Shown here piece by piece: positions 4,711 through 48,104 of a DNA stretch of 64,000 nt. The notes under the pieces were generated by a model. It ran no database searches and was not told where the DNA came from. It saw only the letters and a list, made by a program, of their open reading frames with translations. How positions within the stretch are numbered: the stretch's first letter is position 1; each line of letters begins with the position of its first letter. The stretch is from an uncultured Actinomycetota bacterium (GTDB lineage Bacteria; Actinomycetota; UBA4738; HRBIN12), in assembly GCA_963784055.1 (NCBI GenBank), contig CAWAPY010000012.1, forward strand, positions 174,865 through 238,864, given 5' to 3'. Position numbers and translations under genes: made by a program.

Positions 4711-4738
4711 CTATCGGCGGGTTGGGGGACCGACCTGA
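4711..4738 (-). promoter_or_regulatory. Sigma28/WhiG-like promoter of the pilin gene
   Basis: Minus strand TCAGG-N15-GCCGATAG, ending 7 nt before the GTG start. Confidence 0.65.
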
Positions 4739-4775
4739 GGGCCGTGCTTCCTACGGAGCGATAGCATCGGACCGA

Positions 4776-4861
4776 GCCCGGGTGTCGGAACCGGTAGACG
4801 ACGGCGCCTTAAAAGCGCTTGCCCCGGAAGGGGCGTGTGGGTTCGAATCCCACCCCGGGCA
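4776..4861 (+). tRNA. tRNA-Leu, anticodon TAA (reads TTA; bldA-type)
   Basis: Acceptor stem GCCCGGG/CCCGGGC with discriminator A; D-loop GGTAGA; anticodon arm GGCGC-CT-TAA-AA-GCGCT; long variable arm GCCCC-GGAA-GGGGC; T-arm GTGGG-TTCGAAT-CCCAC. CCA is not encoded. Confidence 0.95.
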
Positions 4862-4936
4862 CGCGGGAGCACCGTTCCCGCCGGCGAGGGTCCCCCTGCG
4901 CGAGCCGGCGTCCGGGCCGTCGTAGGATGCCCGTGC

Positions 4937-5848
4937 ATGGACGGTCAACCGGCGCCTGACTTCCCGCAGCCGCCCACGTCGCAGCCCTCGATCCCGTCCC
5001 TGACCTCGCCGCCACTCCCGCCGCCACCGGCACCGCTCGGAGGCATGCGAGGGGATCGCCCGTTCAGCCTGCAACCGATGGGCGTCGGCGAGATCCTCGA
5101 CGCGGCGATCAAGCTGTATCGCTCGCAGTGGAAGCGCCTGATGGCGATCGTCGCCATCGCCCTCGTCCCGATCACGTTCCTCCAGGTGTTCATGACGCGA
5201 AGCTTGGGGAGCTCGTTCTCCACCCCATCCACGGTGCCGGAGGATGTCGACACGACCCTGATCGCGGGAGGCGTCGTGGCACTGATCGAATTCCTCGTGG
5301 TGCAGCCCTTCCTCATCGCGGCGATGGCGAAGGCCTCCGCGGACGTCTACCTCGGCCACCCCGTGCTCGTCGGGCCGACGTTCCGGTTCGCGGTCTCGCG
5401 GATCCACTCGATCCTGTGGATCACGATCCTGTCGGCGCTCGCGATGCTCCTCGGCTTCGTGCTCCTGATCGTCCCTGGCGTCATCGTCCTGGTGCGCTTC
5501 TTCTTCGGGTCGACGGTGTTCGTCATCGAGGGGAAGAAGGAATCGAAGGCGCTCGGGCGATCATGGAGGCTGGCGAAGGGGCACTTCTGGAAGATCCTCG
5601 GGACGTTCCTGCTGGCATCGATCATGGCCGCCATCGTGCAAGGGGTCCTGGCCATCCCTGGGGAAGCCGCCTTCGCTGCGATCGGTCCGGCGGGGTGGCC
5701 CCTCTACGCGATCGGTCTCTCCCTCGCCGCGATCCTCACCGCCCCGTTCACGACGCTGATCGCCGTGCTGCTCTACTTCGACCTCCGCATCCGGAAGGAA
5801 GCGTTCGACCTCGAGATCATGGCCCAGGAGATGTCGTCGCAGCAGTGA
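4937..5848 (+). CDS. Integral membrane protein, first gene of the MoxR-associated cluster
   Basis: Pro-rich N-terminus, LQPMGVGEILDAAIKLYR, several TM helices, C-terminal LLYFDLRIRKEAFDL. Confidence 0.75.
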   Translation: MDGQPAPDFPQPPTSQPSIPSLTSPPLPPPPAPLGGMRGDRPFSLQPMGVGEILDAAIKLYRSQWKRLMAIVAIALVPITFLQVFMTRSLGSSFSTPSTVPEDVDTTLIAGGVVALIEFLVVQPFLIAAMAKASADVYLGHPVLVGPTFRFAVSRIHSILWITILSALAMLLGFVLLIVPGVIVLVRFFFGSTVFVIEGKKESKALGRSWRLAKGHFWKILGTFLLASIMAAIVQGVLAIPGEAAFAAIGPAGWPLYAIGLSLAAILTAPFTTLIAVLLYFDLRIRKEAFDLEIMAQEMSSQQ

Positions 5849-6769
5849 GGCGCATCGTTCCCCTGTGTGTGGTCCTCGCGATGGGACTTCTCCTCGCGGC
5901 GCCGGCGGGGGCGCAGCCGCGGCCGGTCGATCTCGCCCGAGGAGCTCCTGGATCGGCTGAGCGCGGCGGCGGTGCTCGCGGAGGAGGGGGTCGCCGACCC
6001 TTCACCGTCCCGGATGCGCGAGGTGGAGGAGGCGATGGGCCTTCCCACCCTCGTGCACCTCGACGGCGTCGAGGTGGCGGTTCCACTCGATCCGGTGGTG
6101 GCGACGCTCACCGGCGCGCGCGCCGAGGACTTCCGCCGGGCGGCCGACCGCGTCGGAGCGCTGCGCGATTCGCTCGAACGAGCGATCTCGGCGGCCGAGG
6201 TCGACGCGGACGACGTCGAGGCCGCGCTCACCGACGCCTACCGTGGTGTCCTGCAGGTGGATCCCGGGATCGTCGAGCGGATCCGCCGCGCGATCGGGGA
6301 GCTGATCCAGGGTCTGCTCGCACGGCTCTTCTCGTTCCAGGGGGCCGGCACGATCGTCGCCTGGGCCGTCCTCGTCGGACTCGGGATCCTCGCCTTCTGG
6401 CTCATCCGCAGGCTGCGGCTCGTTCCCGAGACCACGATGGAGGTGGCGGGTGGCCGGACGGGCGCACCTCGCGTCGACTGGATCGCGCGCGCCGAGGACG
6501 CGGTCCGGGCAGGTGACCTCCACCTCGCCGTCCATGCCTTCTACCGAGGACTCGTGGGCGCGCTGTCGGGTCGGGGCCTGCTGATCGACGCCCCCGGTCT
6601 CACCGCCGGCGAATGCCGCTCCACCGTGCGCGCCGTCCGTCCCGAGCTGTTCGACGCCGTCGCCGATGCCACCGGAGCCTTCGAGCAGATCGCCTACGGG
6701 GGCGCCGTGCCGGAGCCGGACGACGTGGACACGCTCCGTCGAGCGGTCACGCTGGCGAGGTCGACATGA
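5845..6769 (+). CDS. DUF4129 domain membrane protein, frameshift near 5927
   Basis: GTG start overlaps the upstream stop; signal peptide in one frame, body in the next. C-terminal AVHAFYR...TAGE...FEQIAYGG motif. Confidence 0.75.
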
Positions 6770-7854
6770 GCAGGAGGATGGCGATCGTCTGGATCACGAT
6801 CGTCCTCCTGCTGGGGGTGCTCATCGCCCTGGTCCCGAGGGCCGAGTCCGGGGAGTCCACGCTCGCGTTGCGACGATTCCTCGCCGAGTCGGGGCGGGAG
6901 GTCTCGGAAGGAGGCCCGCCTCCGGAGGCGGGCGGGACCTACGTCCTCCTCCACGACCTCCGCACGCCGGACGAGGCGCGGTCCCTGCTCGCCTGGGCGG
7001 CGTCCGGCGGTCGATTGGTCGTCGCCGATCCTCGGTCGACCCTCGTGACGCTCTCGGGGGCATCCGTGGGGGAACCGGTCGGTCTCGTCGGCGCGCAGTC
7101 GCTGGAACCCGCGTGCCTGGCGGAAGAGACGCGGGGCGTACGGTCGATCGTCGTCCGGGCATCGGATCGGTCGCTCCGCGGCGGTGACCGGTTCGTGTCG
7201 TGCTTCGACGGGCACGTCCTCGTCCGGTCGCACGATCGGGGGACGCTCGTCCTGCTCGGGGGGTTCACGGCGCTCACGAACGAGCACCTCCGCACGGCGG
7301 ACAACGCCGTGCTCGCCTTGCGGCTGGCCGGCTCGGAGGGCCCGGTGGTCTTCGGCCCGCCGGTCCCCGCCGACATGGCGGCTCCGGCCACCGGGGTGTG
7401 GGGTGCGCTGCCGGAGCGGGCCAAGGTGGCGATCCTCGCGATCGGGGTCGCGGCCCTCGCGTTCGCGGCGCTCCGATCGCGCCGGCTCGGGCGGCCCCCC
7501 GTCGAGGAACCGATCGCGCCGATCCCGGCCAGTGAGCTCGTGCGGGCGACCTCGCGTCTCTACCGGCGAGCCCGGAGCCTCGGCCACGCCGCCGGCGTGA
7601 TGCGCGAGGCGACCCGAGCTCGGGTGGGTCGCCGACTCGGCGTCTCCAGGGAGAGCGAAGCGCTACCCACGGTGGCCGCGAACGTGACCGGCCTCCCCCC
7701 GGATCGCGTGGAGCAGGCACTGAGCGGTCCCGATCCGCGCACCGACGAGGAGCTCATCCGACTGGGTAGCCTCCTGTCCGAGATCGAGTCGAGGACGATG
7801 ACCACTGCAGCCGGCATCGGCACCGGCGCCGACGGCAAAGGGGAACGATCGTGA
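6766..7854 (+). CDS. DUF4350 domain protein
   Basis: ATG overlaps the previous stop; N-terminal TM; WAASGGRLVVA, NEHL..ADNAVLA, RRLGRP..E; conserved position before MoxR. Confidence 0.75.
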   Translation: MSRRMAIVWITIVLLLGVLIALVPRAESGESTLALRRFLAESGREVSEGGPPPEAGGTYVLLHDLRTPDEARSLLAWAASGGRLVVADPRSTLVTLSGASVGEPVGLVGAQSLEPACLAEETRGVRSIVVRASDRSLRGGDRFVSCFDGHVLVRSHDRGTLVLLGGFTALTNEHLRTADNAVLALRLAGSEGPVVFGPPVPADMAAPATGVWGALPERAKVAILAIGVAALAFAALRSRRLGRPPVEEPIAPIPASELVRATSRLYRRARSLGHAAGVMREATRARVGRRLGVSRESEALPTVAANVTGLPPDRVEQALSGPDPRTDEELIRLGSLLSEIESRTMTTAAGIGTGADGKGERS

Positions 7855-8801
7855 CGGAGCCGCGAGACGCGCTGAGAGCCGTGCGCGAGCAGGTCGGCAA
7901 GGCCGTGGTCGGTCAAGAGCACGTGATCTCCGGCCTCCTCGTCGCGCTGCTCGTCCGAGGCCACGTGATCCTCGAAGGGGTGCCCGGCGTCGCGAAGACC
8001 CTGATGGTGAAGGCGCTGGCACGCTCCCTGGACCTCGATTTCCGGAGGATCCAGCTCGCGCCCGACCTGATGCCGTCCGACGTCACCGGGAACGTGGTGT
8101 ACGAGGGCAGCACCGGCGAGTTCCGCTTCCGGCCGGGCCCGGTGTTCACGCACCTGCTCCTCGCCGACGAGATCAACCGCACCCCGCCGAAGACCCAGGC
8201 CGCCCTCCTCGAGGCGATGGAGGAGCACCAGGTCACCACCGAAGGAGAGAGCCGCCCGCTCCCGGAGCCGTTCCTCGTCGCGGCCACGCAGAACCCGATC
8301 GAGTTCGAGGGGACGTACCCGCTCCCGGAGGCGCAGCTGGATCGATTCCTGTTGAAGCTCTCCGTCTCCTACCCGGGCCGTGACGCGGAGCGGGCGGTCC
8401 TCGCGATGCATCACGCCGGACGGGATCCGCATGACCTCGATGCGCTCGGCGTCCGTCCGGTGGCCGGACCTGATGACCTCCGCGCCGGGTCGGACGCCGT
8501 CAAAGAGGTGCGGGTCGACGACGAGGTCGTCTCGTACATGCTCGACCTGGTGGAGGAGACTCGCCGCACGCCGGCGCTGTCCCTCGGCGTGAGTCCCCGT
8601 GGGGCGGCGATGCTCCTGACGGCGGTGAAGGCCTGGGCGTACCTCTCGCAACGCGACTTCGTGACGCCCGACGACGTGAAGACGCTTCTCCGTCCGACGT
8701 GGCGCCACCGCGTGGTGCTGCGTCCCGAGATCGAGCTCGAGGGAGCGACCGCGGACTCCGTGCTCGACGGCATCGCCGAGCGGGTCGCCGTGCCCCGCTA
8801 A
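7851..8801 (+). CDS. moxR: MoxR-family AAA+ ATPase
   Basis: Walker A GVPGVAKT, LLADEINR, ATQNPIEFEGTYPLPEAQLDRF. Confidence 0.95.
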   Translation: MTEPRDALRAVREQVGKAVVGQEHVISGLLVALLVRGHVILEGVPGVAKTLMVKALARSLDLDFRRIQLAPDLMPSDVTGNVVYEGSTGEFRFRPGPVFTHLLLADEINRTPPKTQAALLEAMEEHQVTTEGESRPLPEPFLVAATQNPIEFEGTYPLPEAQLDRFLLKLSVSYPGRDAERAVLAMHHAGRDPHDLDALGVRPVAGPDDLRAGSDAVKEVRVDDEVVSYMLDLVEETRRTPALSLGVSPRGAAMLLTAVKAWAYLSQRDFVTPDDVKTLLRPTWRHRVVLRPEIELEGATADSVLDGIAERVAVPR

Positions 8802-8804
8802 CCC

Positions 8805-10109
8805 ATGCATCTTCGGCCCAGGCTCGTCGTTGCCTTCCTCGCGGCCGGCGGGCTCGCCGCCATCGCCCCCGCCGACCCGACGCTCGTCCTCGTCGCCGCG
8901 ACCGTCCTCGTCGCGATCCTCGTGGTCCTCGACGTCGTGCTGGCTCCGAGGGCGAGCGCGTTGCAGCCTCGCCGGGCGGTCGCCGCCGTGCTGCGGATGG
9001 GCCGCCCCGCCGACGTCCTCGTGGAGCTGCACAATCCGACCGATCGTGCGCTCGCGATCGAGACCCACGATGCGACCCCACCGTCGATGGATCGCGAACC
9101 CCTGCGGCACCACGTCTCGATCGAGCCCGGCGGCTGGTCGCAGCTGCCAGCGTCGATCCGTCCGGGACGTCGCGGGCGCGCCTCGATCGGGCCGCTCACG
9201 ATCCGGACGGCCGGACCGCTGGGGCTCGCCGGCCGGCAATCGACCGTCCCGCTGGTCGACGAGGTGAAGGTGTATCCGGCGCTCCGAGGACGCGCCGAGG
9301 TCGAGCTCCGCTTCCGGCGGGCCCAGCTCCTGCAGTCGGGACTGCGATCGACCGCGTACCGAGGCGGGAGCGACGAGTTCGACTCGCTCCGTGAGTACCG
9401 GTCCGACGACGAGTTCCGGCGGATCAACTGGAAAGCCACCGCCCGATCGCCGCGGCCGATCGCCAACGAGTACCGCGAGGAGCACAACCAGCAGGTGGTG
9501 ATGCTGCTGGACGCGAGCCGGGCCACGGCCGGCCAGGTGGCCGGCGTGTCCCGGCTCGAGCATTCCCTGGACGCTGCGATCGCCGTCGCGGACCTCGCGG
9601 CCCGCGTCGGCGATCACGTCGGCGCGCTCGCCTTCGGCCGCGACGTGCGGGCGTTCGTCGAGCCTCGCGGCGGCCCGTCGCAGCCCCCGCGCATCCTGCA
9701 GCTCCTCTTCGACCTCGAGGCGGGTCTGTACGCCCCCAACTACCCGCTCGCGTTCGCCACGCTGCTCGCGCGGCACCGTCGCCGCTCGTGGCTGGTCCTG
9801 TTCACGGATCTCTCGGAGGGATCGGTCCTCGAACCGTTGCTCCGGGCGATCCCGGTGCTGCTGTCGAGACACCTGCTCGTCGTGGCGAGCGTGCGCGACC
9901 CCGAGGTCGAGACGCTCGCCACCTCGGTGCCGTGGACGTCCGAAGACGCCTACGATCGCGCGTCCGCAGCCGGGTTCATGACGTGGCGCGATCGCGCCGC
10001 GGCACGGATCAGAGGGCTCGGCGCCACGGTGATCGACGCGCAGCCGGGCGCCCTCGCCGCCTCGGTGGCCGACGAGTACCTCCAGATCAAATCGCGGGGC
10101 CGACTCTGA
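8805..10109 (+). CDS. DUF58 (vWA-like) protein
   Basis: EFDSLREY..DDEFRRINWKATAR, LLDASR, LFTDL; downstream of MoxR. Confidence 0.9.
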   Translation: MHLRPRLVVAFLAAGGLAAIAPADPTLVLVAATVLVAILVVLDVVLAPRASALQPRRAVAAVLRMGRPADVLVELHNPTDRALAIETHDATPPSMDREPLRHHVSIEPGGWSQLPASIRPGRRGRASIGPLTIRTAGPLGLAGRQSTVPLVDEVKVYPALRGRAEVELRFRRAQLLQSGLRSTAYRGGSDEFDSLREYRSDDEFRRINWKATARSPRPIANEYREEHNQQVVMLLDASRATAGQVAGVSRLEHSLDAAIAVADLAARVGDHVGALAFGRDVRAFVEPRGGPSQPPRILQLLFDLEAGLYAPNYPLAFATLLARHRRRSWLVLFTDLSEGSVLEPLLRAIPVLLSRHLLVVASVRDPEVETLATSVPWTSEDAYDRASAAGFMTWRDRAAARIRGLGATVIDAQPGALAASVADEYLQIKSRGRL

Positions 10110-17771: not shown

Positions 17772-18280
17772 CCACTCGAGAGGAGGCGATCGAGACGCTC
17801 GAGCGTGGTCACCGCGAGATCCGCCGGCTGATCAAGCGGATCCCCCCGCACTGGATGGCGAGGCCCGGTGTCGGCGATGGCGACTGGACGCCGAAGGATC
17901 TCCTCGGACACCTCTGCTCGTGGGAGGAGAAGGTCTTGGAGGCGCTGGCTGCCTGGGACGCCGGGGAGCGCGCGCCGATCGACCGCGACATCCACGCGAG
18001 CTCGATCGGAGCGATCAATGCGGACGGTGTCCGCCGACGCTCGCGACACACCCTCGCGCGCGTGCAGCGGGACTGGGACAACGTGCACGGTGCCTTGATC
18101 CGCGCGATCCGATCGATGCCGGACGCTCGCTGGGAGAAGCCCGCGACCCCACGCGGTAGGAAGTCCCTCGGGCACCGGATCGGGCAGCTGCTCGTCGGCG
18201 CGGGTCCCTTCGAGCACGCCGAGGCGCACGTGCGGGACCTGGAGTCGTTCGTCGAGTCGATCCCCGAAGGGGAGCGTTGA
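17768..18280 (+). CDS. DinB/ClbS-like four-helix bundle protein
   Basis: GDWTPKDLLGHLCSWE...FEHAEAH metal-binding His pattern. Confidence 0.75.
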   Translation: MTTREEAIETLERGHREIRRLIKRIPPHWMARPGVGDGDWTPKDLLGHLCSWEEKVLEALAAWDAGERAPIDRDIHASSIGAINADGVRRRSRHTLARVQRDWDNVHGALIRAIRSMPDARWEKPATPRGRKSLGHRIGQLLVGAGPFEHAEAHVRDLESFVESIPEGER

Positions 18281-18284
18281 CGCC

Positions 18285-19137
18285 CTACGCGTGGATGATC
18301 ACGGGCGTGCCGTACGCGAGCAACGGGAGCAGTCGGTCGAGGGTCGTCTCCGAGACCCGGACGCACCCGGCGCTCACGCTCTGTCCGATCGACGAGGGGT
18401 TGTTCGTGCCGTGGATCGCGAGCTGGTTCCCGCCCGACCAGCCGGCGGGCAAGCGCGGCTGGATGCCGCTGATCCCGAACGCGAAGGATCCGAGGGCGCT
18501 TCCGGCGGAGAAGGGCACTCGATCGGTCACGAAGTACTCGCCGACGGGCGTGGGAGAAGACGGCGCCCCCGTCGCGCCCGGGGCGCGGAACAGGACCTTG
18601 CCGAACTTCCGTACCGTGACCTGGTGTAGGGACAGGTCGACCTCGACCCGCACGCGGGTCGTGTCGCGTTCCAGACCGCGGAGACGGATCCACCCTTCGC
18701 GCCGCGGCCACGTGTACGGGAGCTCGACGCGTCCCCACCTGCCGTCGGACGAGACCTCCTCGACCCAGGCCACGATCCGGATCCCGTAGTACTTGGAGCC
18801 GGAGGGAACCACGCCCACCTGGGCGGCGCCGACAGCCGGGCCGGGCGAACGCGGGAAGGGTGCGCGGAACCTCGACCAGGACGTTGGTCCATCGGGCGAC
18901 GCGGGCGGCTGTTCGCGCGATCTCCTGCGGATCCGGTCGAACGCCGGACGCCGGGAGAGCGAAGCCACGGGGAGGTGCGCTCGCCACCATGACCACGATC
19001 GAGGGTCCGGAGGGCGCCGCTTGGCTCACCGCTCCCGCCTGCGCCCCCACCATGTTCGCCGCCATCGGCGTCAGCAGGCCCAGTGCGACGGCCAGGATGA
19101 CCGTGAGCTTCGAACGTTCGGGGTGACGTCGCCGCAT
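18285..19137 (-). CDS. L,D-transpeptidase (YkuD family), frameshift near 18835
   Basis: Signal/TM N-terminus from ATG 19137; catalytic domain TPVGEYFV...IHGTN...SAGCVRV...GTPV. Confidence 0.85.
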
Positions 19138-19143
19138 GCCTCC

Positions 19144-19181
19144 CTATCGGCGGGTGCGACCGAAGTACCTAAGTCGAGGTA
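19144..19181 (-). promoter_or_regulatory. Sigma28-like promoter overlapped by a palindromic TACCT-N6-AGGTA box
   Basis: Minus strand TTAGG-N16-GCCGATAG, 6 nt before ATG. Palindrome TACCTAAGTCGAGGTA at 19166-19181 covers the -35 element. Confidence 0.6.
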
Positions 19182-19283
19182 TCCGATTGCCCGTGGTCTG
19201 CCGCGGGCCGTAGCCTGGAGCGGCATCGTCGAGCTCGAGCTCGAGCCCGAACGACGAAGCGTTGGCTCGGAAGGAGCGGATGG

Positions 19284-25529: not shown

Positions 25530-26618
25530 TCACCGCCGGTGCCGCTTCCCACGAGCCCCGAGATCCTCGGCCAGGTCGTAGGTGACCGGCTCCTCGAGCT
25601 GCTCGTAGGTGCACGAGCGTGGGTCGCGATCGGGGCGCCAGCGCACGAACTGGGCTGTGTGCCGAAGCCGCGGACCCTCCATGTGGTCGTAGCGGACCTC
25701 GATCACGCGCTCGGGGCGAAGCGGGACGAACGTCAGGTCCTTCCCGGCGCTCCAGCGGCTGAACTCGGAATGTCGCGGCGTGCGGGTGCCGAGCTCTTCC
25801 CTCGCCCAGTTCCACGGATGCTCCTCGAACGTGGTGACGAGCGGCTGGAGCTCCTCGAATAGCCGCCGACGCTGCGTCATCGGGAGGGCGCCGACCACGC
25901 CGATGTTCGCGAGGTGGCCGTTCGCGTCGTACAGACCGAGCAGCAGCGACCCGATCGCACGCTGATCCGTCTTGTGCACCCGGTAGCCGGCGACGACGCA
26001 GTCGGCGGTGCGCACGTGCTTGACCTTGAACATCACCCGCTTGTCCGCCTGGTAGGGCAGGTCGAGCGGTTTGGCGACGACGCCGTCAAGCCCCGCGCCC
26101 TCGAACTCGTCGAACCATCGCAGTGCGATCCGCCGGTCGGTCGTTGCCGGCGTGAGGTGCACGGGCGAGCGAGCGTCGGCCAAGGCATCCTCGAGCGCCC
26201 TTCGCCGGTCGGCGAAGGGGTCTGCCAACATCGAGCGGTCGCCGAGCGCGAGCAGATCGAACGCCACGAGGTGCGCCGGCGTCTGTTTCGCGAGGAGCCG
26301 GACGCGGCTGTCGGCCGGGTGGATGCGCTGCTGGAGTGTCTCGAACTCGAGCCGCTTGCCGGAGGAGTCGGGCACGACGAGCTCGCCGTCCACGACGCAG
26401 CGTTCGGGCAGGTTGGCCCTGATCGCGTCGACGACCTCGGGGAAGTAGCGGGTCATCGGCCGCGCGTTCCGGCTGCCGATCTCGACCTCGTCGCCATCCC
26501 GGAACACGATCGAGCGAAATCCGTCCCACTTGGGCTCGTAGGCGAGGTGATCCATCGGAACCTCAGCGACGGACTTGGCGAGCATCGGTAGAACGGGCGG
26601 CATGACGGGCAGGTGCAT
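25530..26618 (-). CDS. ligC: ATP-dependent DNA ligase LigC
   Basis: PMLAK, YEPKWDGFR (adenylated Lys), DGELV, AFDLL, GLDGVVAK, KVKHVRTADCVV, WRPDR. Confidence 0.92.
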   Translation of the reverse strand: MHLPVMPPVLPMLAKSVAEVPMDHLAYEPKWDGFRSIVFRDGDEVEIGSRNARPMTRYFPEVVDAIRANLPERCVVDGELVVPDSSGKRLEFETLQQRIHPADSRVRLLAKQTPAHLVAFDLLALGDRSMLADPFADRRRALEDALADARSPVHLTPATTDRRIALRWFDEFEGAGLDGVVAKPLDLPYQADKRVMFKVKHVRTADCVVAGYRVHKTDQRAIGSLLLGLYDANGHLANIGVVGALPMTQRRRLFEELQPLVTTFEEHPWNWAREELGTRTPRHSEFSRWSAGKDLTFVPLRPERVIEVRYDHMEGPRLRHTAQFVRWRPDRDPRSCTYEQLEEPVTYDLAEDLGARGKRHRR

Positions 26619-26729: not shown

Positions 26730-28118
26730 TCAGCTCGGCGAGTCTCCACCGTCCTGGGACTGGGACGAGGGCTGACCCGGCCACTCGACGCCCTCCCATG
26801 GGTCGTAGTCGACCTCCAGGGCCTCCTGGGGAGGCCGTTCGGCCTCGGGGACGTTCCGGAGGTTGAGTCGGATCCGGGTCCACGTGGTGCTCCGACCGCG
26901 CATGGAGTCGACCAGGACGTCGTTCGCCGCCAGGAGCGCCGCGGCATCCGGATGCCGCTCCTTCCATCGCTCGAGCCCTTCCTTCGCTTCCACTTCGGTC
27001 GCCGCCCGGGCGACCTCGATCAGCGGCATCCTCGTGCGGCGACGCCCGGTCGGGCCGCTCTGCTTGCCCGGCGCCGGGGGAGGCACGGTCGCTTCGTCGG
27101 CCTCGCCCTTCTGGCGACGCCTGGAGGGCTGGGCGCGGACGGGCTCCCCTTCGGCCTTCGGGAAGTGCGGCGGGTACGGTGCCTCGCCCTGTCCCTCGGC
27201 GGCCTGCCGATCAGAGAGCTCGAGGAGCGCCTCGAGGCTCGCGGCCCGGTCGTCGATCCCCGCCCCCGGATCGCCGACACGCTCCAGCCGAGCCGGAACC
27301 GTGCGGATCGTGAAGGCCTCGGGCTCCACGCCGGGCACCTCGTCCCATCCGAGGGGCGTCGAGACACGTGCGTCCGCGACCGGGCGGACGCTGTAGGCGG
27401 ACGCCACCGTCCGGTCGCGCGCGTTCTGGTTGTAGTCGATGAACACGCCGTGGCGCTCCTCCTTCCACCACTTCGTGGTCGCGAGGTCGGGGACGCGGCG
27501 CTCGACCTCCCGGGCCATGGCCAGCGCAGCGCGCCGGACCTCCGTGAAGGACCAGTCGGGCCGGATGCGCGCGTTGACGTGGATCCCCTTCTTGCCGCTC
27601 GTCTTCGGGAAACCGACCAGTCCGTGCTCCTCGAGGACCTCCTTCGTGACGAGGGCCACCTCGCGCACGTGGTCGAACGGGATCTCGGGCCCCGGGTCGA
27701 GGTCGACGCGGAGCTCGTCCGGATGGTCGACGTCGTCTGCACGCACCGGCCACGGGTTGATCTCGAGACATCCGAGGGTCGCGGCCCACGCGAGGTGCGC
27801 CGCGTCCGCCATCACCGGCATGTCGGCGGTCCGTCCGCTCGGGAACCGGATCAGCGCCGTCTCCACCCACGAGGGCGCTCCCTTCGGCAGACGCTTCTGA
27901 TAGAAGCCCTCGTCGCCGGCTCCATCCGGGAAGCGGTGCAGGGTCGTCGGCCGGTCGCGGCACCCGACGAGAGCGGCGTCCGCGACCTCGATCCAGTACC
28001 GGACGAGGTCGAGCTTGGTCACCGGTCCGTCCGGCGCGTCGGGGAAGTACACCTTCTGCGGGTTCGTGACCCGGATCTCTCGTCCTGCGACGTCGAGGGT
28101 CTCGGCTGGCGTCGGCAC
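26730..28118 (-). CDS. LigD-type primase-polymerase domain protein (Prim-PolC-like) with C-terminal extension
   Basis: TNPQKVYFP, RFPDG..FYQK, PDELRVDLDP, KTSGKKGIH, VFIDYNQNARDRTVASAYSVR; adjacent to ligC. Confidence 0.9.
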   Translation of the reverse strand: MPTPAETLDVAGREIRVTNPQKVYFPDAPDGPVTKLDLVRYWIEVADAALVGCRDRPTTLHRFPDGAGDEGFYQKRLPKGAPSWVETALIRFPSGRTADMPVMADAAHLAWAATLGCLEINPWPVRADDVDHPDELRVDLDPGPEIPFDHVREVALVTKEVLEEHGLVGFPKTSGKKGIHVNARIRPDWSFTEVRRAALAMAREVERRVPDLATTKWWKEERHGVFIDYNQNARDRTVASAYSVRPVADARVSTPLGWDEVPGVEPEAFTIRTVPARLERVGDPGAGIDDRAASLEALLELSDRQAAEGQGEAPYPPHFPKAEGEPVRAQPSRRRQKGEADEATVPPPAPGKQSGPTGRRRTRMPLIEVARAATEVEAKEGLERWKERHPDAAALLAANDVLVDSMRGRSTTWTRIRLNLRNVPEAERPPQEALEVDYDPWEGVEWPGQPSSQSQDGGDSPS

Positions 28119-32352: not shown

Positions 32353-33367
32353 CTAACCGGCGGTGACGCCGGGTCCGCGCGGCGGGGGTGAGAACGTGGT
32401 CGCGAGCCGCTCCGGGTCTTCCCCGCGTTGCTCGATCTGCGCTCGATCCACCTGGCCGAGGAACCGTCCCGCCTCCGCAGATGTACGGGATCTGTTCCGG
32501 ATCGAAACCCATCAGCGATGCGCCGACCGTATCGGCGGCGACCGGGTCGTCCGCGAAGACCAAGACTCCCGACCCGATGGGCTCGCCCGAGATCGGCCCG
32601 TTGCCCTCCATCCCGACGATCCCGTCGATGATCGCGTAGGCAGGCCGCACGGAACCGGCGATGTCCAGGATCGACTGCTCGATCCCCGCCCAGTGCAGGA
32701 CGTTCTTCGGCCAGCCGTAGACCCTGCCGGGCAAGGTCCCGAAGAGGTTCTTGAGCGAAAGGGTGACGCCGGCCCAGTGGTGCGTCTTCATCTTCGGCAT
32801 CGAGACGACCACGTCGGCGTCGAGCACAGGTGTCGGGAGCCACAGCTCCCCGAGGTCGGTGTAGTGAGAACGCAAACGCACCCGACGGATGGCGGCGGTG
32901 TTCAGGTCGACGAACGTCGCGTCCACATCGGCGAGGACGTCGGTGAGCCCGGAACGCGTCACCACGTCCTGGACGTCGCGCCGGTGGCCCGGTCCCTCCC
33001 CGACGCGGACGGAGGTCGCACCCAAGCGTCGGAGCGCGAGCACCGAAGCTGCGATCAATCGCGGGTCCGTGTTGACGGCCGTGGTGGGATCGAACTCCAC
33101 GAGGTTCGGCTTCAACAGGACGTTCGCTCCACGGACGTCCGCTCCGATCGCGCGGAGCCCGTCCAGTACGGTCGCCTCGAGCGGTCCGTCGTAGTCGGAG
33201 GCGGCCAGGACGGCGACGCGCGCGTCCCCTGGTGGAGGGAACGCCGCTTCGTCCCAGCTCTCGGGCTGCCGCAGGAGGGCCCGAAGCCCGAGACCGCTCG
33301 CGAGCGCGACCGCGGACCCGGCGGCGGCCCCCCGAAGGAACGTCCGGCGATCGACGTCACGGCTCAT
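32353..33367 (-). CDS. DUF362 domain protein with Tat signal, frameshift near 32480
   Basis: DRRTFLRG twin-arginine signal; VLLKPNLVE, PKMKTHHWAGVTLSLKNLFG, DGIVGMEGNGP, DPVAAD. Confidence 0.85.
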
Positions 33368-34179
33368 GCCGCGCCCCTGGGCATCGGCGCGTCCAAGGCA
33401 AGAGCGGCCCACGCGAGAGCGACGCCGTCGCCGAGCAGGCCGGTATCGGCGATGAGGTGCTCGAGCTCGATCCGGACGGCCCGTGCGTCTGCGGCCGCGT
33501 CGTGGGTGCGGAACGCCGCCAGTGCGGTCGCCAGTGAGAGACCACCCGCGGATTCGTCTCGCCAGATGCGGCGCAGGGTGTCCAGGCCACGGTCCTCGAG
33601 GTCGTGGTCCAGACCGGACAGGCCGACCAGCGAGATCGCCGTGGTTTGCACGAACGGTGGCAGATCCACTCCGAGGACCTCACGGTTCCCGTAGTTCCAC
33701 CCACCCCCCACGCACTCGCGGTCGCGGAGAAGGTTCGCCGCGTCCTCGATCCTGGCGGACGACGGCCGTGCAACCCGAAGCGCCCAGAGCGCGCGCGCGG
33801 TGGGCTCCACCCACGAGGCGGTCCCGCGCGTCCACGCCCAGCCGATCGCCGATTCATCGATCGGAGTGGCGGCGGTGGAATCGACGCGAGCCGCCCGAGA
33901 CGCCTCGAGGGAGTCCAGCGCGCGCTCGCGCTCGGCCCCCGGGCCGAGCGCGAGCGCGCCCAATCCGGTCGCGGAGTCGTTCACGTACGGGCCCACGACG
34001 GTCGCGAACGAGCCGTCGTCGCGCTGGTGCTCGGCCAGCCACCTCCGGGCTCGCTCATCGCTCAGGGCGAGGGCGGCCAGGGCCGTCGGCTCCGGCTCGC
34101 TCGGCTGACCGAGACGCGGCCCGAATCCTCCATCAGCGTTCTGCAGGCGGGCGACGAGGCTGGCGGTGTCGATCGGCAT
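33364..34179 (-). CDS. Prenyltransferase/squalene-cyclase repeat (alpha/alpha barrel) protein
   Basis: QNADGGFG, EPTALAALAL, QRDDGSF, GWAW...SWVEPT, GGWNYGN. Its stop overlaps the DUF362 start. Confidence 0.75.
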   Translation of the reverse strand: MPIDTASLVARLQNADGGFGPRLGQPSEPEPTALAALALSDERARRWLAEHQRDDGSFATVVGPYVNDSATGLGALALGPGAERERALDSLEASRAARVDSTAATPIDESAIGWAWTRGTASWVEPTARALWALRVARPSSARIEDAANLLRDRECVGGGWNYGNREVLGVDLPPFVQTTAISLVGLSGLDHDLEDRGLDTLRRIWRDESAGGLSLATALAAFRTHDAAADARAVRIELEHLIADTGLLGDGVALAWAALALDAPMPRGAA

Positions 34180-34187: not shown

Positions 34188-34215
34188 CTATCGGCTCCTT
34201 CGGTGGCGCTGCGTA
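34188..34215 (-). promoter_or_regulatory. Sigma28-like -10 element for the prenyltransferase/DUF362/UXS operon
   Basis: Minus strand GCCGATAG 8 nt before ATG 34179; the -35 element is weak (TACGC). Confidence 0.5.
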
Positions 34216-34320: not shown

Positions 34321-34347
34321 TCAAGTCCGTTGCTGGGACGCCGAACA
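34321..34347 (+). promoter_or_regulatory. Sigma28-like promoter for the GT2/GT-C/UGD operon
   Basis: TCAAG-N14-GCCGAACA upstream of GTG 34379. Confidence 0.45.
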
Positions 34348-41510: not shown

Positions 41511-41538
41511 TCATCTTTGGACCCGGAGATGCCGATGT
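41511..41538 (+). promoter_or_regulatory. Sigma28-like promoter of the first atypical response regulator
   Basis: TCATC-N15-GCCGATGT, 9 nt before ATG 41548. Confidence 0.5.
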
Positions 41539-42883: not shown

Positions 42884-42948
42884 CCTCACCGCATCGATCC
42901 CAGACCCTTTCGAACGAAGAGAAGATCCGCCCCAGCCACCGAGGACGC

Positions 42949-43653: not shown

Positions 43654-45111
43654 CTAGGATCGGACGAACACGGAGCCGGCCGGGCCGTCGACAACTCGCC
43701 GCCAGCCGTCCGCCTCGGAGAGCTCGTCTTTCAACACCGCGTCAGGCGGTAAGACGACACCGTCGATCCGGTGCTCGTCGAGGATCTGTCGCCAGCTCTC
43801 CGTCGCGGCGATCGCTCGATCGTAGTCGTGCCACACCCCGTCGGGGAAGAGCTCGATCCTCGAATCGACCATCACGGGATCCTCCGGAAGCGAGTACTCG
43901 AACCAGGACGCGAACGGCTGATACACCAGCAGGCGGGATCCAGCCGGCAGGGTTGCGCGTGTCGCCTCGACGAGGACCTCGGGCGCGTCTGCCGCGAGTC
44001 GCTGCGTGGTGCCGGTCACGGGGTCGATCCCCGCCCGAAGGACCAGCGCGATCGGGATGAGCGCGACGATGCAGGTGGAGGCCGCGACCTTCAAGGGATC
44101 GACCCGATGAGCTCCATCGTCCGGTTGCTCCGGCGATCGGAACCATCGGGACACGACCGGGGGCGCCGCCAGCGCCCACCAGAGCGTGCCCCTGATCGCG
44201 GGGACGCCGAGAGCGAAGAACACGATCAGCCGCGCGATGTCGATCGGACGGACGCTTCTGCGCTTCCACAGTGCCGTCACGAGGACGATCACACCGGAGG
44301 CCCAGAATGGACCCCCGCTCAGCGACAAGGGGGTTGGAGCACGCCATTCGGCCACCCAATTCCGGATCGTCTCGTTGCGAGAGATCTCGACGGCGTATGA
44401 CCACACGCTCGGTCCGAAGGGTGTGACGAACGTCGCCGCAACGGTTGCCAGCAACACCAGCGAGGTCCGTGCCGCCGGTTTGCGGTCGAAAAGATCCTCA
44501 CCGAAAGCGAACGCCACCAAGAGCGGGGCGAGCACGAAGCTTCCGTGTACGTTCGCCCAGCCCAGGGCAAGGATCGGCACCAACCACATCCACTTGTCGC
44601 GCCTCGTGAGGAGCAGCCAGGTTCCCGTGAAGAGGGGCACGGCGAGCGCTTGGGGCCGAGGCGCAGGGGGTCCGGTGGCAACGAGAAGCGCCGACAGTGT
44701 GAGCACGGCAGCCGTTCGTGGGCGAGCTCCGGCCCGCCGACAGCTCGCGAAGAGGAAGCCGAAGCCAGCTCCGACCGCCGCCGCCATGGTCATGGCGACC
44801 CCAAACCACCCGAGCAACCGATGTGCCCCGGCGAAGACGAGCTGCGCCCCCCACTGCTGGTTCACCCAGGGAAGACCGCCACGAGTGAATGTGAACGGAT
44901 CCGTTCGGAGGAGATCCCCCGACTGCAGGGTGAGGGCGCCCGCCTTCACGTGGTAGGCAAGGTCGATGGCTCTCATCCTCGTCAGCAGCGAGGCCGTCGC
45001 GGGGAGCACAGAGGCCAGGAGCGCCCAAGGAGGTTGAGAGCGTCCGTGAGCCGCGGCCCCCGTTCGCCCAGTTCGGGACGCGGTGTTCGCAGGTGTGCCC
45101 AACCGGAGCAT
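43654..45111 (-). CDS. GT-C-like polytopic membrane protein divergent from flp
   Basis: DLAYHVKAG...DPFTFT.GG.PWVNQQW, RPQ, WANVHGSF, TPFG, EW, DSRIELF; many TM helices. Confidence 0.75.
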   Translation of the reverse strand: MLRLGTPANTASRTGRTGAAAHGRSQPPWALLASVLPATASLLTRMRAIDLAYHVKAGALTLQSGDLLRTDPFTFTRGGLPWVNQQWGAQLVFAGAHRLLGWFGVAMTMAAAVGAGFGFLFASCRRAGARPRTAAVLTLSALLVATGPPAPRPQALAVPLFTGTWLLLTRRDKWMWLVPILALGWANVHGSFVLAPLLVAFAFGEDLFDRKPAARTSLVLLATVAATFVTPFGPSVWSYAVEISRNETIRNWVAEWRAPTPLSLSGGPFWASGVIVLVTALWKRRSVRPIDIARLIVFFALGVPAIRGTLWWALAAPPVVSRWFRSPEQPDDGAHRVDPLKVAASTCIVALIPIALVLRAGIDPVTGTTQRLAADAPEVLVEATRATLPAGSRLLVYQPFASWFEYSLPEDPVMVDSRIELFPDGVWHDYDRAIAATESWRQILDEHRIDGVVLPPDAVLKDELSEADGWRRVVDGPAGSVFVRS

Positions 45112-45162
45112 CGTACGGGCTTCGGTCCGGTTCCCTGGCAGCCGGCGAAGAAGTCCAAATCG

Positions 45163-45178
45163 TACGTCGAAGTACGTA
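45163..45178. promoter_or_regulatory. Palindromic NarL-type box upstream of flp copy 1
   Basis: TACGT-CGAAGT-ACGTA, followed by GGAAT-N5-ATTCC (45191-45205) and a -10-like TATCGT (45225-45230). Confidence 0.6.
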
Positions 45179-45235
45179 CTGAAATGCAGTGGAATACGGG
45201 ATTCCTTGGTGCATGGGGCGCTTCTATCGTTCCCA

Positions 45236-45290
45236 ACTGGCGGAGTAGCAGTTCGCCTGTGGGGCGAAAGCCCCGAGGACGGGATCTCGG
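45236..45290 (+). ncRNA. Candidate structured 5' leader of flp copy 1 (no known family recognised)
   Basis: ACTGGCG..CGCCTGT stem, GGGGC-GAAA-GCCCC tetraloop hairpin, and an overlapping CCGAG..CTCGG stem directly before the SD. Confidence 0.45.
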
Positions 45291-45308
45291 AGGAAGGAGG
45301 TGTATCGG

Positions 45309-45516
45309 ATGCTTAAGCTCTACACGGGTCTTCAGACTTGGTGGGCCGACCTCAAGGCTCGCGCCACGGAGGAGCACGGCGCGACCGCGGTCGAGTACGC
45401 ATTGATGGTCGCTCTGATCGCAGTGGTCGATCATCCTGGCGGTGACCTTCATCGGCACGTCTGCTTCCACGAAGTTCAGCGAGGTTGGATCGGCAGTCAA
45501 CAGCGCCGGTTCGTAG
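45309..45516 (+). CDS. flp: Flp/Fap type IVb pilin, copy 1 (one extra C near 45428)
   Basis: EHG|ATAVEYALMVALIAVV; differs from copy 2 by GTGGTCGATC versus GTGGTGATC. Confidence 0.9.
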
Positions 45517-45528
45517 CTCCAACCGATC

Positions 45529-45593
45529 GAGCGGCCATCGGCCGCTCTCGCCGCTCTCGCCGTCAGGCGCAAGGGCGGCGAGAGCGGTCGAGA
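45529..45593 (+). terminator. Tandem hairpins after flp copy 1
   Basis: GAGCGGCC-ATC-GGCCGCTC, then CCGCTCTCGCCGT...GCGGCGAGAGCGG. Confidence 0.6.
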
Positions 45594-45820
45594 CCACCGG
45601 CATCCCCATCGGGATCGCTCATTCGACCCCGCAGAACCACTCGCCAGAGCGCAACCGGATCCTGGCGACCTCTCCCACCGCAGCGCAGGGTCAGTCAGAC
45701 CTTCGCCCTACGTCGGCATCGTTACTCCAGGCACGAAAAGGTATCCCTTTGGGGGTTCCACTTCCGCACCCAACGGGGTACCATGCGGCGTCTTCTTCGG
45801 GCACTCCTCGAGAGGATGCG

Positions 45821-45836
45821 TACGTAGAAACACGTA
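45821..45836. promoter_or_regulatory. Palindromic NarL-type box upstream of flp copy 2
   Basis: TACGT-AGAAAC-ACGTA, same spacing to GGAAT-N5-ATTCC (45849-45863) and TATCGT (45883-45888) as in copy 1. Confidence 0.6.
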
Positions 45837-45893
45837 GACAACTCCAGTGGAATACGGGATTCCCTGGAGGATGGGGCGCTTCTATCGTTCCCA

Positions 45894-45948
45894 ACTGGCG
45901 GAGTAACGGTTCGCCAGTGGGGCGAAAGCCCCGAGGACGGGATCTCGG
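45894..45948 (+). ncRNA. Candidate structured 5' leader of flp copy 2
   Basis: Perfect ACTGGCG/CGCCAGT stem, GGGGC-GAAA-GCCCC hairpin, CCGAG/CTCGG stem. Confidence 0.45.
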
Positions 45949-45967
45949 AGGAAGGGAGGTGTATCGG

Positions 45968-46174
45968 ATGCTTAAGCTCTACACGGGTCTTCAGACCTGG
46001 TGGGCCGACCTCAAGGCCAGCGTCACGGAGGAGCGCGGCGCGACCGCGGTCGAGTACGCGTTGATGGTCGCTCTGATCGCAGTGGTGATCATCCTGGCGG
46101 TGACCTTCATCGGCACGTCTGCTTCGACGAAGTTCAGCCAGGTCGGATCGGCAGTCAACGGCGCCGGTTCGTAG
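45968..46174 (+). CDS. flp: Flp/Fap type IVb pilin, copy 2 (intact, 68 aa)
   Basis: MLKLYTGLQTWWADLKASVTEERG|ATAVEYALMVALIAVVIILAVTFIGTSASTKFSQVGSAVNGAGS; strong SD GGAGGTG. Confidence 0.95.
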   Translation: MLKLYTGLQTWWADLKASVTEERGATAVEYALMVALIAVVIILAVTFIGTSASTKFSQVGSAVNGAGS

Positions 46175-46186
46175 CTCCAACCGATC

Positions 46187-46231
46187 GAGCGGCCATCGGC
46201 CGCTCTCGCCGCCGCCTCAAGGCGGCGGCGA
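46187..46231 (+). terminator. Tandem hairpins after flp copy 2
   Basis: GAGCGGCC-ATC-GGCCGCTC and TCGCCGCCGCC-TCAA-GGCGGCGGCGA. Confidence 0.6.
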
Positions 46232-46244
46232 TAGGAGCCGATGG
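46217..46244 (+). promoter_or_regulatory. Sigma28-like promoter of tadE
   Basis: TCAAG-N15-GCCGATGG, 13 nt before ATG 46258. Confidence 0.6.
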
Positions 46245-46257
46245 ATTCTCAGGAGTG

Positions 46258-46686
46258 ATGGGTGTGAGCGTGCGAAGCAAGCTGCGCCGGGAGGACGGGG
46301 CTGCCGCGGTCGAGTTCGCCTTGATCGTCGGGCTGCTCGCCGTCCTTATCTTCGGGTTGCTCGAGTACGGACTCGCGTTCTGGCAGGTGCAGAACCTGCG
46401 TTCCGCGGCCCGTGAGGGAGCGCGGGTGGCCGCGGTGCGCGGCGACGCCACCGCGGTGCGGAGTGCGATGGTCGATTCCTCCGCAGGCTCTCTGAGCGGA
46501 TCGTGGACGTACACACAGAATCGAACGTGCGACGGATCGACCGCGAACACGGGTCAGCAGGTGACGATCCAGATCACCAACAGCTCGCTGTCCGGACCGG
46601 TGCAGGAGGCCTTCCAGGTGTCCATCCCCTTCCTCCCGCCGCTCCAGCTCGACCCCGTCTTGCGAGGCAGCTTCCGCTGCGAATGA
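46258..46686 (+). CDS. tadE: TadE-like pseudopilin
   Basis: EDG|AAAVEFALIVGLLAVLIFGLLEYG...AAREGARVAAV; ends FRCE. Confidence 0.9.
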   Translation: MGVSVRSKLRREDGAAAVEFALIVGLLAVLIFGLLEYGLAFWQVQNLRSAAREGARVAAVRGDATAVRSAMVDSSAGSLSGSWTYTQNRTCDGSTANTGQQVTIQITNSSLSGPVQEAFQVSIPFLPPLQLDPVLRGSFRCE

Positions 46687-46693
46687 GCGTCCG

Positions 46694-48066
46694 ATGAGGA
46701 GGCGACCCCCCTTGGCCGATCCCAACACGCTCCGCGACGACGAACGCGGAGCGACCGCCGTCATCGTCGTGTTGAGCCTGATCGCGCTGTTCGGATTGAT
46801 CGTGCTCACGGTGGACGTGGGGCAATTGCTCTTCCAGCGCCGCGGGATGGTGAACGCCTCGGACGCGGCGGCCCTCGCCGCCGCTCAGTCGTGCGCGGGG
46901 CTCGATGATTCCGACGTCCCGGAGGCGATGGCCGATACCTTCGCGGTGAACAACGTCGGCAGCGCCATCACGGCGGTCCCGAACATCACGGAGATGGTCG
47001 GATGCGACGGTCCGGCGTACGGCCACGTCAGCGTCGAATACGCGATGAACCAGGATCTCTTCTTCGCAGGCGTTCTGGGCTTCAACGGACCGGCCTCCGT
47101 GCGGACCGCCGCCACGGCCGGATGGGGTCCCGCCGGCGGCGCGAACCCGCTCCCGATCGTCGTCTACACGGGGAACGACCAGGGCAACTGCGACATCGAA
47201 GAGGGAACCCCGGCGGGGGTCCCGTGCTACCTCTGGTACGACAACGACCTGTTCGAGAACTCCGCGTTCGGGTTCCTGAACCTCTGCACCGCCACGGACC
47301 CCTGCACGCACGGGTGGGATGTCGTGTCGGATGCGAACTGCCCGAACGTGGGATCGAGCCTCCGTGACGACTGGATCCTCGGGCAACTGGACGGGCGGGC
47401 CCAACGAGCTCAACTACCCGGATCCGACCTACGTCTGTGTCGTCACGGGAGTCTCATCGGCCAACTGGCAAGACCTCGAGCGGCGGGCCGGATTCCCGGA
47501 TGAGCGATTCCGACCTCATCTTCCCGATCGATGATTGCACCACCAACGTCGACAACAACGGGAACATCGTCGGCTGCGACGCGTTCCCGAACAAGTACAA
47601 CATCATCGGGTTCATCACCCTCCACCTCGACGAGGTGCTGCAGAGCGCCGCGGAGTGGGGCGGCATCGCGCAGACCTCCTGCCAGCGGAACAACCTCGAC
47701 GTGACGCCCGGGTTGGTCGTGCCGTTGTCGTCCTTCCCGGGAGGGCAGTGCCCCAACGGGAACACGCCCACGGGTGTGGTCGACTTCAGGATCGACAGCC
47801 AGACGTCGAGCCCGAACTGGACGTACGACAACCTGAACAAGCAGTTCACGTGGACGGGACCGGCGGACAGGGTCGACGTGAACTTCGACTGGTGGCTGGA
47901 CGGCGAGTGTGGCCAACCGCCTGCGAACTCCAGTGCCGTCTGCATCAAGGTCCACACGGTGAAGGTTCGCTTCGGTGGAACGGATCCCGGCGGAGGGGCG
48001 GACTTCGGAACGCGGGCGATCAGGCTCTGCGACCTCGCGATCGGGAGCTGTCCCGAACAAGATTGA
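46694..48066 (+). CDS. TadG-like Cys-rich pilus protein, frameshifts near 47380 and 47500
   Basis: ERG|ATAVIVVLSLIALFGLIVLTVDVG..NASDAAALAAAQSC; continues NWTGGPNELNYPDPTYVC and LIFPIDDC...GGGADFGTRAIRLC in other frames. Confidence 0.85.
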
Positions 48067-48076
48067 GCGAGAACAC

Positions 48077-48104
48077 TGAAGCCGGCACGGCGTCCGGCCG
48101 ATAG
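48077..48104 (+). promoter_or_regulatory. Sigma28-like promoter of the cpaB-tadC operon
   Basis: TGAAG-N15-GCCGATAG in the tadG-cpaB gap. Confidence 0.65.

Follow-up and report, generated by a model that had tools for sequence, protein, structure and literature searches.

Probable WhiG-type promoters in front of pilus, envelope and regulatory genes of an uncultured actinobacterium

The genome of an uncultured bacterium of the Actinomycetota contains a recurrent two-box element, T[CG]A[AG][GC]-N15-GCCGAT[AG]N, in front of pilus, envelope and regulatory genes, and this element is very probably a class of promoters read by the WhiG-type sigma factor that the same genome encodes. The analysis is centered on a stretch of 64,000 nucleotides (nt; G000:C12:174865-238864), here called the window, from an assembly of 2.94 Mb in 20 contigs with a G+C content of about 69.5% and a completeness of 70%. 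An initial annotation of this DNA had listed seven sites and proposed that a sigma-28/WhiG-type promoter defines a dispersed regulon of pilus, envelope and regulator genes, with no flagellar gene in the window. All seven strings occur where the annotation placed them and on the strand it gave, between genes and oriented toward the next gene. The proposal itself also holds up, since the genome encodes both WhiG and the anti-sigma factor RsiG, the motif is specific in its spacing and to non-coding DNA, and its boxes are kept among relatives while the spacers between them drift. We infer from these sequences that WhiG reads the sites, where transcription would start, and that RsiG and cyclic di-GMP (c-di-GMP) would control the process.

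The evidence for the motif as a class begins with spacing. The pattern of the initial annotation was searched at all spacers from 5 to 35 nt between the upstream (-35) and the downstream (-10) box, without prior fitting. Upstream of the 216 GCCGAT[AG][AGT] words in non-coding DNA, T[CG]A[AG][GC] occurs 12 times at a spacer of 15 nt and 4 times at 16 nt, compared with a mean of 1.76 over the 29 other spacers. Upstream of the 898 coding words of the same form, it occurs 4 times at a spacer of 15 nt, and the counts follow the codon period only. The peak at 15-16 nt is confined to non-coding DNA. The non-coding segments, 576,698 nt in total, contain 12 matches to the pattern with a spacer of 15 nt. 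One hundred dinucleotide-preserving shuffles of these segments produced 0.88 ± 0.86 matches with a maximum of 3, and none reached 12. The two-box motif is therefore enriched over shuffled sequence and real genome-wide.

For a scan of the genome, a position weight matrix (PWM) was seeded on the 17 non-coding matches with spacers of 15 or 16 nt. This matrix returned 22 hits with scores of at least 18, of which 20 fall in the non-coding 18.7% of the genome. Because a high score can also stem from a hairpin arm or from an antisense coding word, we used conservation of the boxes combined with drift of the spacer as the filter. Orthologous regions were taken from published genomes only, and synteny around the window is retained within the genus. 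By this standard, four of the seven listed sites are supported (pilin, L,D-transpeptidase, RR1 and cpaB; Table 1), the tadE site is part of a hairpin, and the prenyltransferase and GT2 sites are left without support.

At the four conserved sites, the boxes are kept in same-genus genomes and the spacers drift. In front of the cpaB operon, TGAAG-N15-GCCGATA[GAC] occurs at the same place in all 14 same-genus loci, with spacers that differ from one another; the ATG of cpaB (48145) lies 40 nt past the octamer, with an AAAGGAG Shine-Dalgarno sequence in between. The type IV pilin site is kept as CTCA[GT]G (-35) and [GA]CCGATA[GC] (-10) in 11 of 11 same-genus loci, each with a GTG or ATG start at constant offset. 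The Pfam N_methyl domain covers residues 1-27 of this pilin when translation begins at GTG 4703. At RR1, which encodes a protein with Response_reg and GerE domains (Pfam) starting at ATG 41548, GCTCA[TG] and TGCCGATG are found in 10 of 10 same-genus loci, joined by unrelated spacers and followed by an ATG 9-10 nt on. The L,D-transpeptidase site scores low because of its TTAGG -35 box. Nevertheless, 10 of 11 same-genus loci have its -35 region GACTTAGGTA unchanged, 9 of 11 have an identical -10 region GCCGATAGG, and all 11 retain the ATG (19137).

Table 1. Coordinates of candidate promoter sites and associated features in the window
Feature	Position	Strand	Description
Type IV pilin, WhiG-type promoter	4711..4738	-	CTCAGG-N15-GCCGATAG, PWM 23.7
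L,D-transpeptidase, conserved promoter-like element	19144..19172	-	TTAGG-N16-GCCGATAG, PWM 13.3
RR1 (LuxR-type response regulator), WhiG-type promoter	41511..41538	+	CTCATC-N15-GCCGATGT, PWM 16.4
cpaB-cpaE/F-tadB/C operon, WhiG-type promoter	48077..48104	+	TGAAG-N15-GCCGATAG, PWM 24.2
Tad/Flp pilus cluster	45959..53467	+	Pfam Flp_Fap, TadE, Tad, RcpC/SAF, CbiA+T2SSE, T2SSF
Hairpin between flp and tadE	46193..46244	+	"-35" is the loop, "-10" is the 3' arm
GT2-methyltransferase gene, candidate weak site	34321..34347	+	TCAAG-N14-GCCGAACA, PWM <9.5
Prenyltransferase-like gene, -10-like octamer only	34188..34195	-	GCCGATAG, 8 nt before ATG 34179
Eighth GCCGATAG, not in the list of the initial annotation	51511..51518	+	Overlaps TAG stop of cpaE/F-like ATPase gene; no PWM hit

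Across the genome, the non-coding hits precede a range of genes, given here by descending score. The first four encode an unknown protein of 156 residues, an enzyme with the domains PAS-PAS-GGDEF-EAL, a small protein resembling a zinc finger, and TadE. Next come flpB, which encodes an Flp pilin and lies on a different contig, then cpaB, the type IV pilin gene and the gene of a 167-residue membrane protein. They are followed by genes for a protein of 983 residues whose matches to histidine kinases are weak, for a CpaB-like protein and for a T2SSE ATPase, and then for a CheY-like receiver, an N-terminal piece of a PilT-family protein and a 1045-residue coiled-coil protein. Hits before RR1 and before a protein combining a response regulator with GGDEF rank lower. 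At the PAS-GGDEF-EAL gene, all 19 loci carry TCAAG and GCCGATG unchanged, although neither the spacer nor the upstream DNA can be aligned; four of the 23 loci from relatives had been dropped from this alignment (three unpublished and one that covers the first 77 nt only). For flpB, the site lies directly upstream of the gene in 9 of the 10 genomes in which an orthologue was found. The PWM scan shows no WhiG-type site before either of the two tandem flp copies in the window, and no site scoring at least 10 in the right orientation before whiG or rsiG; autoregulation is therefore not supported.

The presumed reader of these sites is a single sigma factor of the FliA/WhiG family, encoded at C11:43817-44491 (minus strand). 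It matches TIGR02479 with 270.9 bits (cut-off 189.6) and the NCBIfam WhiG model NF004935 with 333.7, just below the cut-off of 343. Among solved structures, its nearest match is the sigma chain of PDB 6pfj (6pfj_A), which aligns over 236 positions (residues 7-242) with an E value of 3.2e-84. We take this entry to be the WhiG-RsiG complex of Streptomyces venezuelae. The sigma family is present in 39 of 41 relatives, five unpublished genomes included. As for flagella, searches of this 70%-complete genome for FlhA, Flagellin_N and FliG_C were negative. FlhA was likewise absent from the results for 25 genomes of the genus (three unpublished ones included), of which 11 have a completeness of at least 90%.

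The candidate RsiG is a twin-helix protein of 176 residues encoded at G000:C16:82741-83268 on the minus strand (locus L195:501-1031). A strict six-frame search for the signature E(X)3S(X)2R(X)3Q(X)3D gave no RsiG-like match, and neither did the first relaxed searches. The protein was found with a partial-motif search and confirmed by matches to Pfam PF22802 (RsiG-like, 66.5 bits, cut-off 27) and to the anti-sigma chain T of PDB 6pfj (E value 1.6e-18 over residues 26-170). It also matches RsiG-labeled chains of PDB 7lq2-7lq4 with E values of 0.003-0.005 (7lq4_D, 0.003), one of which is labeled "RR RsiG"; presumably these are entries from Rubrobacter radiotolerans. RsiG occurs in 36 of 41 relatives, counting unpublished genomes. 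Of 30 loci, four unpublished and two fragmentary ones were dropped, which left 24 published sequences for alignment. In these, the pattern of repeat 1 is R(X)3S(X)2R(X)3Q(X)3[E/D]; the initial E of the signature is replaced by R in 23 of 24 (by S in one), and Q is kept in 23 of 24 (H in one). The pattern of repeat 2 is E(X)3S(X)2R(X)3[H/L/I/V](X)3D, and the canonical Q is replaced by H, L, I or V in every sequence.

Leaderless mRNAs are common in Actinobacteria. The initial annotation had placed start codons 6-9 nt past the -10 box in four cases, and we find the same distances: 6 nt for the L,D-transpeptidase, 7 for the pilin, 8 for the prenyltransferase-like gene and 9 for RR1, so that these start codons begin at the 7th, 8th, 9th and 10th nt past the octamer, respectively. 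The offsets of the pilin, L,D-transpeptidase and RR1 are retained in 10-11 relatives. In the fliC promoter of Pseudomonas aeruginosa, the octamer spans -15 to -8 (PMC12784957). From this geometry, transcription would be expected to start at the 8th nt, which would place the pilin GTG at +1, the L,D-transpeptidase ATG at -1 and the RR1 ATG at +3, and all four near starts between -1 and +3. It is plausible that the pilin, L,D-transpeptidase and RR1 mRNAs are leaderless or nearly so. Other targets, such as cpaB and the GGDEF-EAL gene, have predicted leaders of 30-45 nt that contain Shine-Dalgarno sequences.

How else could such sites arise? One explanation invokes chance and base composition, because GCCGAT is common at 70% G+C and A/T-bearing words (...ATAG) gather between genes. 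At the level of the window, GCCGAT alone occurs 127 times, the octamer GCCGATAG is found 5 times against an expectation of 1.52 (3 of 100 shuffles reach 5), and CTCA-N16/17-GCCGAT is found 3 times against 0.68 (2 of 100 shuffles reach 3); this excess over chance is marginal. Two of the listed sites may also be chance matches. The octamer before the prenyltransferase-like gene (open reading frame 33364-34179) has no -35 box at a distance of 14-17 nt, and the region can be aligned in only two close relatives, which are about 86% identical throughout; a promoter is not supported here. The boxes before the GT2 gene are invariant, with a varying spacer, in just two close relatives (about 86% identity). 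The near-leaderless start assigned to this gene (TTG 34352) is unlikely. The Pfam GT2 domain starts as early as residue 13 of the TTG-34352 open reading frame, which makes GTG 34389 the likelier start; this codon is preceded by a GAAGGGA Shine-Dalgarno sequence and gives a leader of about 41 nt. An eighth copy of the octamer, at the end of the cpaE/F-like gene, is most likely a chance match. For the motif class, however, chance is contradicted by a -35 box that peaks only at spacers of 15-16 nt and only in non-coding DNA, by a count that no shuffle reached, and by boxes that persist across 10-19 genomes while spacers change. We give this explanation hardly any credence for the class and consider it possible for the sites at 34188 and 34321. 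Another explanation sees the elements as structures formed by RNA or DNA, for example terminators or stabilizing hairpins, and not as promoters. This is indeed the case for the tadE site, TCAAG-N15-GCCGATGG at 46217-46244 on the plus strand, 10 nt before GTG 46255. The 91-nt stretch that contains the hairpin (window 46172-46262) folds with -52.9 kcal/mol (z = -4.96), and none of 200 shuffles is as stable. The hairpin was found in 12 of 12 relatives. In nine of them the arm pair CCATCGGC/GCCGATGG is replaced by CCGTCGGC/GCCGACGG, so that both sides have changed and the stem is intact but the -10 box is altered; in one relative, a change on one side only produces a G-U pair. The loop, which supplies the apparent TCAAG box, is variable (TCGA, TCCA, TTCA and others). 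A conserved promoter at tadE is therefore rejected. The hairpin is probably a terminator or stabilizer through which the amount of pilin relative to pilus machinery is set. The boxes at cpaB, pilin, RR1, flpB and GGDEF-EAL, in contrast, are not complementary to each other, and by eye their spacers vary freely without paired changes. As a general account of the motif, structure is very improbable.

A further alternative accepts the motif as real and assigns it to another alternative sigma factor, or to a DNA-binding regulator with a bipartite site. The genome does contain at least three other genes of the sigma-70 family. Moreover, the L,D-transpeptidase element is embedded in a longer block, CAATCGACTACCTCGACTTAGGTAC (window 19160-19200), which is near-invariant in 10 of 11 relatives and extends well past the -35 box; a regulator site, or the promoter that serves the divergent class I aldolase gene, may be located there as well. 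Against this alternative, the published FliA/WhiG consensus has the same boxes and the same spacing. The sites have a direction and lie 6-45 nt ahead of start codons, and their targets belong to classes known from WhiG regulons. The encoded sigma factor aligns over 236 residues to the sigma chain of PDB 6pfj with the E value given above. We regard a reader other than WhiG as improbable, if less so than chance or structure.

Several observations weigh against the interpretation of these sites as a WhiG regulon under c-di-GMP control. The enrichment of PWM hits in non-coding DNA is partly circular, since the seed consisted of non-coding sites chosen at spacers of 15-16 nt. Gene calls span only 82% of the genome, so that the non-coding set retains some missed genes. 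High scores can mislead: the tadE hairpin arm reaches 24.9, and a hit of 23.7 at G000:C17:82902-82930 (minus strand, locus L011) faces the antisense strand of a tRNA-Pro gene (L011:1406-1489, plus strand). Two antisense hits of 21.4 in flp (45449-45478 and 46107-46136, both minus strand) were rejected as coding artefacts because the same hits recur inside flp in relatives. In six of six loci from other families of the order, no site with a score of at least 13 lies upstream of cpaB. Nineteen RNA runs contained small shares of the region 44000-52000 of the window, at most 0.13. The metatranscriptome contigs from four runs are short pieces from which no starts, ends or strand can be read. They are mostly 90-95% alike, and therefore from relatives, and they concentrate on the conserved ATPase gene; one carries the cpaB promoter sequence of a relative as a loose end, which is neutral either way. 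Finally, the canonical c-di-GMP signature is complete in neither repeat of RsiG among the 24 aligned sequences of the order, and c-di-GMP control is therefore not assured.

With WhiG as the reader, the sites suggest the following mechanism. The promoters would consist of a -35 box (C)T[CG]A[AG]G, a spacer of 15 (sometimes 16) nt and a -10 box GCCGAT[AG]N. RNA polymerase containing WhiG would bind both boxes and start transcription about 8 nt past the octamer, and start codons that lie 6-9 nt past it would yield leaderless or nearly leaderless mRNAs for the pilin, the L,D-transpeptidase and RR1. The predicted regulon would include cpaB with the downstream ATPase and T2SSF genes, the second Flp pilin, the type IV pilin, PilT-like ATPases, c-di-GMP enzymes and small regulators. 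By homology to Streptomyces and Rubrobacter, RsiG with bound c-di-GMP would sequester WhiG. If this complex holds WhiG inactive, pilus production would be tied to the level of c-di-GMP, and WhiG-dependent genes for diguanylate cyclases and phosphodiesterases (DGC/PDE) could feed back on the signal. A more specific scenario is that the WhiG-RsiG switch was moved onto Tad/Flp pili in this order, and that its RsiG, with one canonical contact lost per repeat in nearly all of 24 genomes from seven families, may bind c-di-GMP differently or more weakly, or may answer another signal. We consider this scenario speculative and, taken as a whole, rather unlikely.

The Tad/Flp cluster itself has the order flp, tadE, a gene for a Tad-domain (TadG-like) protein, an uncharacterized gene, cpaB, the cpaE/F-like ATPase gene, an open reading frame at 51522-52601 without a Pfam hit, and a gene for a T2SSF-domain (TadC-like) protein. 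The ATPase (window 48936-51518, plus strand) is a protein of 860 residues in which a CbiA/ParA-like (CpaE/TadZ-like) N-terminal half is fused to a T2SSE (CpaF/TadA-like) ATPase. The two tandem flp copies lie 658 nt apart (window 45300-46174), and each carries a triplet of GCCGAT words (45451/45489/45537 and 46109/46147/46195); the first copy has only a partial Flp_Fap match. Elsewhere in the genome, the 45-nt leader of the PAS-GGDEF-EAL gene (G000:C19:171120-171164, locus L008) contains a GGCCGCC...GCGGCC stem-loop just 5' of the ATG that is conserved in 19 relatives. The gene behind the top-ranking site (locus L007, 156 residues, PWM 27.5) was considered as an anti-sigma factor and dropped, as it has no match in Pfam, NCBIfam or PDB.

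Genes were called with a dicodon model, which gave 2977 genes and a coding share of 82%; a first gene caller had cut gene starts short and was replaced by this second one. The low coding share is partly due to several genes being split by frame shifts. The ATG and the YkuD domain (18285-18968) of the L,D-transpeptidase gene (window 17809-19137, minus strand) fall in separate frames, and the HisKA and HATPase_c domains of a histidine kinase (60424-61658, minus strand) are likewise in different frames. Together with the coding density, these split genes suggest indel errors in the assembly. The N-terminus of the pilin (pilin region 4265-4703, minus strand), with its N_methyl domain, is in frame with an adenosine deaminase open reading frame that extends down to 3210, and the coding potential of the pilin body is in another frame (4265-4630); this arrangement suggests a frame shift or assembly indel near 4630. 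The pilin promoter adjoins a tRNA-Leu gene at 4776-4862. Other parts of the window contain a string of DUF4129, DUF4350, MoxR AAA ATPase and DUF58/VWA genes (5867-10109, plus strand) and an ATP-dependent DNA ligase gene that adjoins one for a LigD primase-polymerase (25530-28118, minus strand), a pair that looks like an end-joining repair module.

These findings would extend the WhiG-RsiG circuit to a non-flagellate actinobacterial lineage from soil and to Tad/Flp pili; so far, the circuit has been documented in Streptomyces, for sporulation, and in Rubrobacter together with a few further families, for type IV pili. The footprinted promoters (cpaB, pilin, flpB, GGDEF-EAL, RR1 and L,D-transpeptidase) could anchor the prediction of WhiG regulons in uncultured Actinomycetota, and the RsiG motif variant offers a lead on how the c-di-GMP contacts of the anti-sigma factor evolve.

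Among known systems, one with shared features is proteobacterial FliA. As in the fliC promoter of P. aeruginosa, the sites described here combine a -10 octamer of the GCCGATAA type, positioned there at -15 to -8, with a TAAAG-like -35 box (PMC12784957). The classical FliA spacing, TAAAG-N14, is one nt shorter than that found here, where the -35 box reads TCAAG, TGAAG or TCAGG. FliA also differs in serving a flagellar regulon and in having FlgM, not RsiG, as its anti-sigma factor (PMC12784957). In Bdellovibrio, reporter fusions have shown that FliA drives a Tad operon including flp pilin genes, and this organism thus shares the link between a sigma-28 factor and Tad/flp genes (PMC5430801). In contrast to the lineage studied here, however, Bdellovibrio is a flagellated proteobacterial predator in which FliA drives flagellins too and RsiG is not involved (PMC5430801).

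The closest solved sigma and anti-sigma factors are those of PDB 6pfj, presumably from S. venezuelae, and RsiG is a twin-helix protein in both cases. The Streptomyces RsiG contains the canonical signature twice, whereas the protein described here has R for E in repeat 1 and H, L, I or V for Q in repeat 2. The two also differ in output, as the WhiG regulon of Streptomyces concerns sporulation (whiH, whiI) and not pili (bioRxiv 10.64898/2026.01.14.699351). According to the same phylum-wide study, WhiG2 recognizes T(A/C)AA-N16-GCCGATAA with an invariant CGA core and WhiG1 recognizes CTCA-N16-17-GCCGAACT; WhiG2 co-occurs with RsiG and not with flagella, and the recurrent WhiG targets include type IV pili, c-di-GMP enzymes and response regulators (bioRxiv 10.64898/2026.01.14.699351). 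The motif found here (TCAAG-N15-GCCGAT) fits the WhiG2 consensus, and its CTCA variants equal the -35 box of WhiG1 (bioRxiv 10.64898/2026.01.14.699351). RsiG, the absence of flagellar genes from our searches, and pilus and DGC/PDE targets are likewise WhiG2-like traits. That study used genera with named representatives, whereas the present lineage is known only from metagenome-assembled genomes; its main text, supplements aside, contains none of the terms "Tad", "Flp" and "leaderless" (bioRxiv 10.64898/2026.01.14.699351).

A close parallel is the (RsiG)2-(c-di-GMP)2-WhiG switch of Rubrobacter radiotolerans, a non-flagellate, non-sporulating actinobacterium that also combines a WhiG-type sigma factor with RsiG (PMC8325347, PNAS 2021). 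A search of its genome for TAAA/GCCGATAA was followed by start-site mapping, which confirmed 12 promoters, among them five that precede DGC/PDE genes and three that lie within the cluster for type IV pili (PMC8325347). Both organisms have sigma-28-type promoters inside a pilus cluster and before DGC/PDE genes, with about 12-20 sites per genome (PMC8325347). The differences are that Rubrobacter RsiG is a small homodimer with a single motif and not a 176-residue twin-helix protein, that the Rubrobacter sites have mapped starts whereas those described here are predicted from sequence, and that the Rubrobacter targets belong to a type IV pilus (pil) cluster, whereas the clearest targets here are Tad/Flp genes along with a type IV pilin and PilT-like ATPases (PMC8325347). 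A WhiG-RsiG pilus circuit is hence already published, both for Rubrobacter (PMC8325347) and across the phylum (bioRxiv 10.64898/2026.01.14.699351), and to these precedents the present analysis makes the modest additions of a lineage from metagenomes only, Tad/Flp targets, conserved start-codon offsets and a variant of the RsiG motif.

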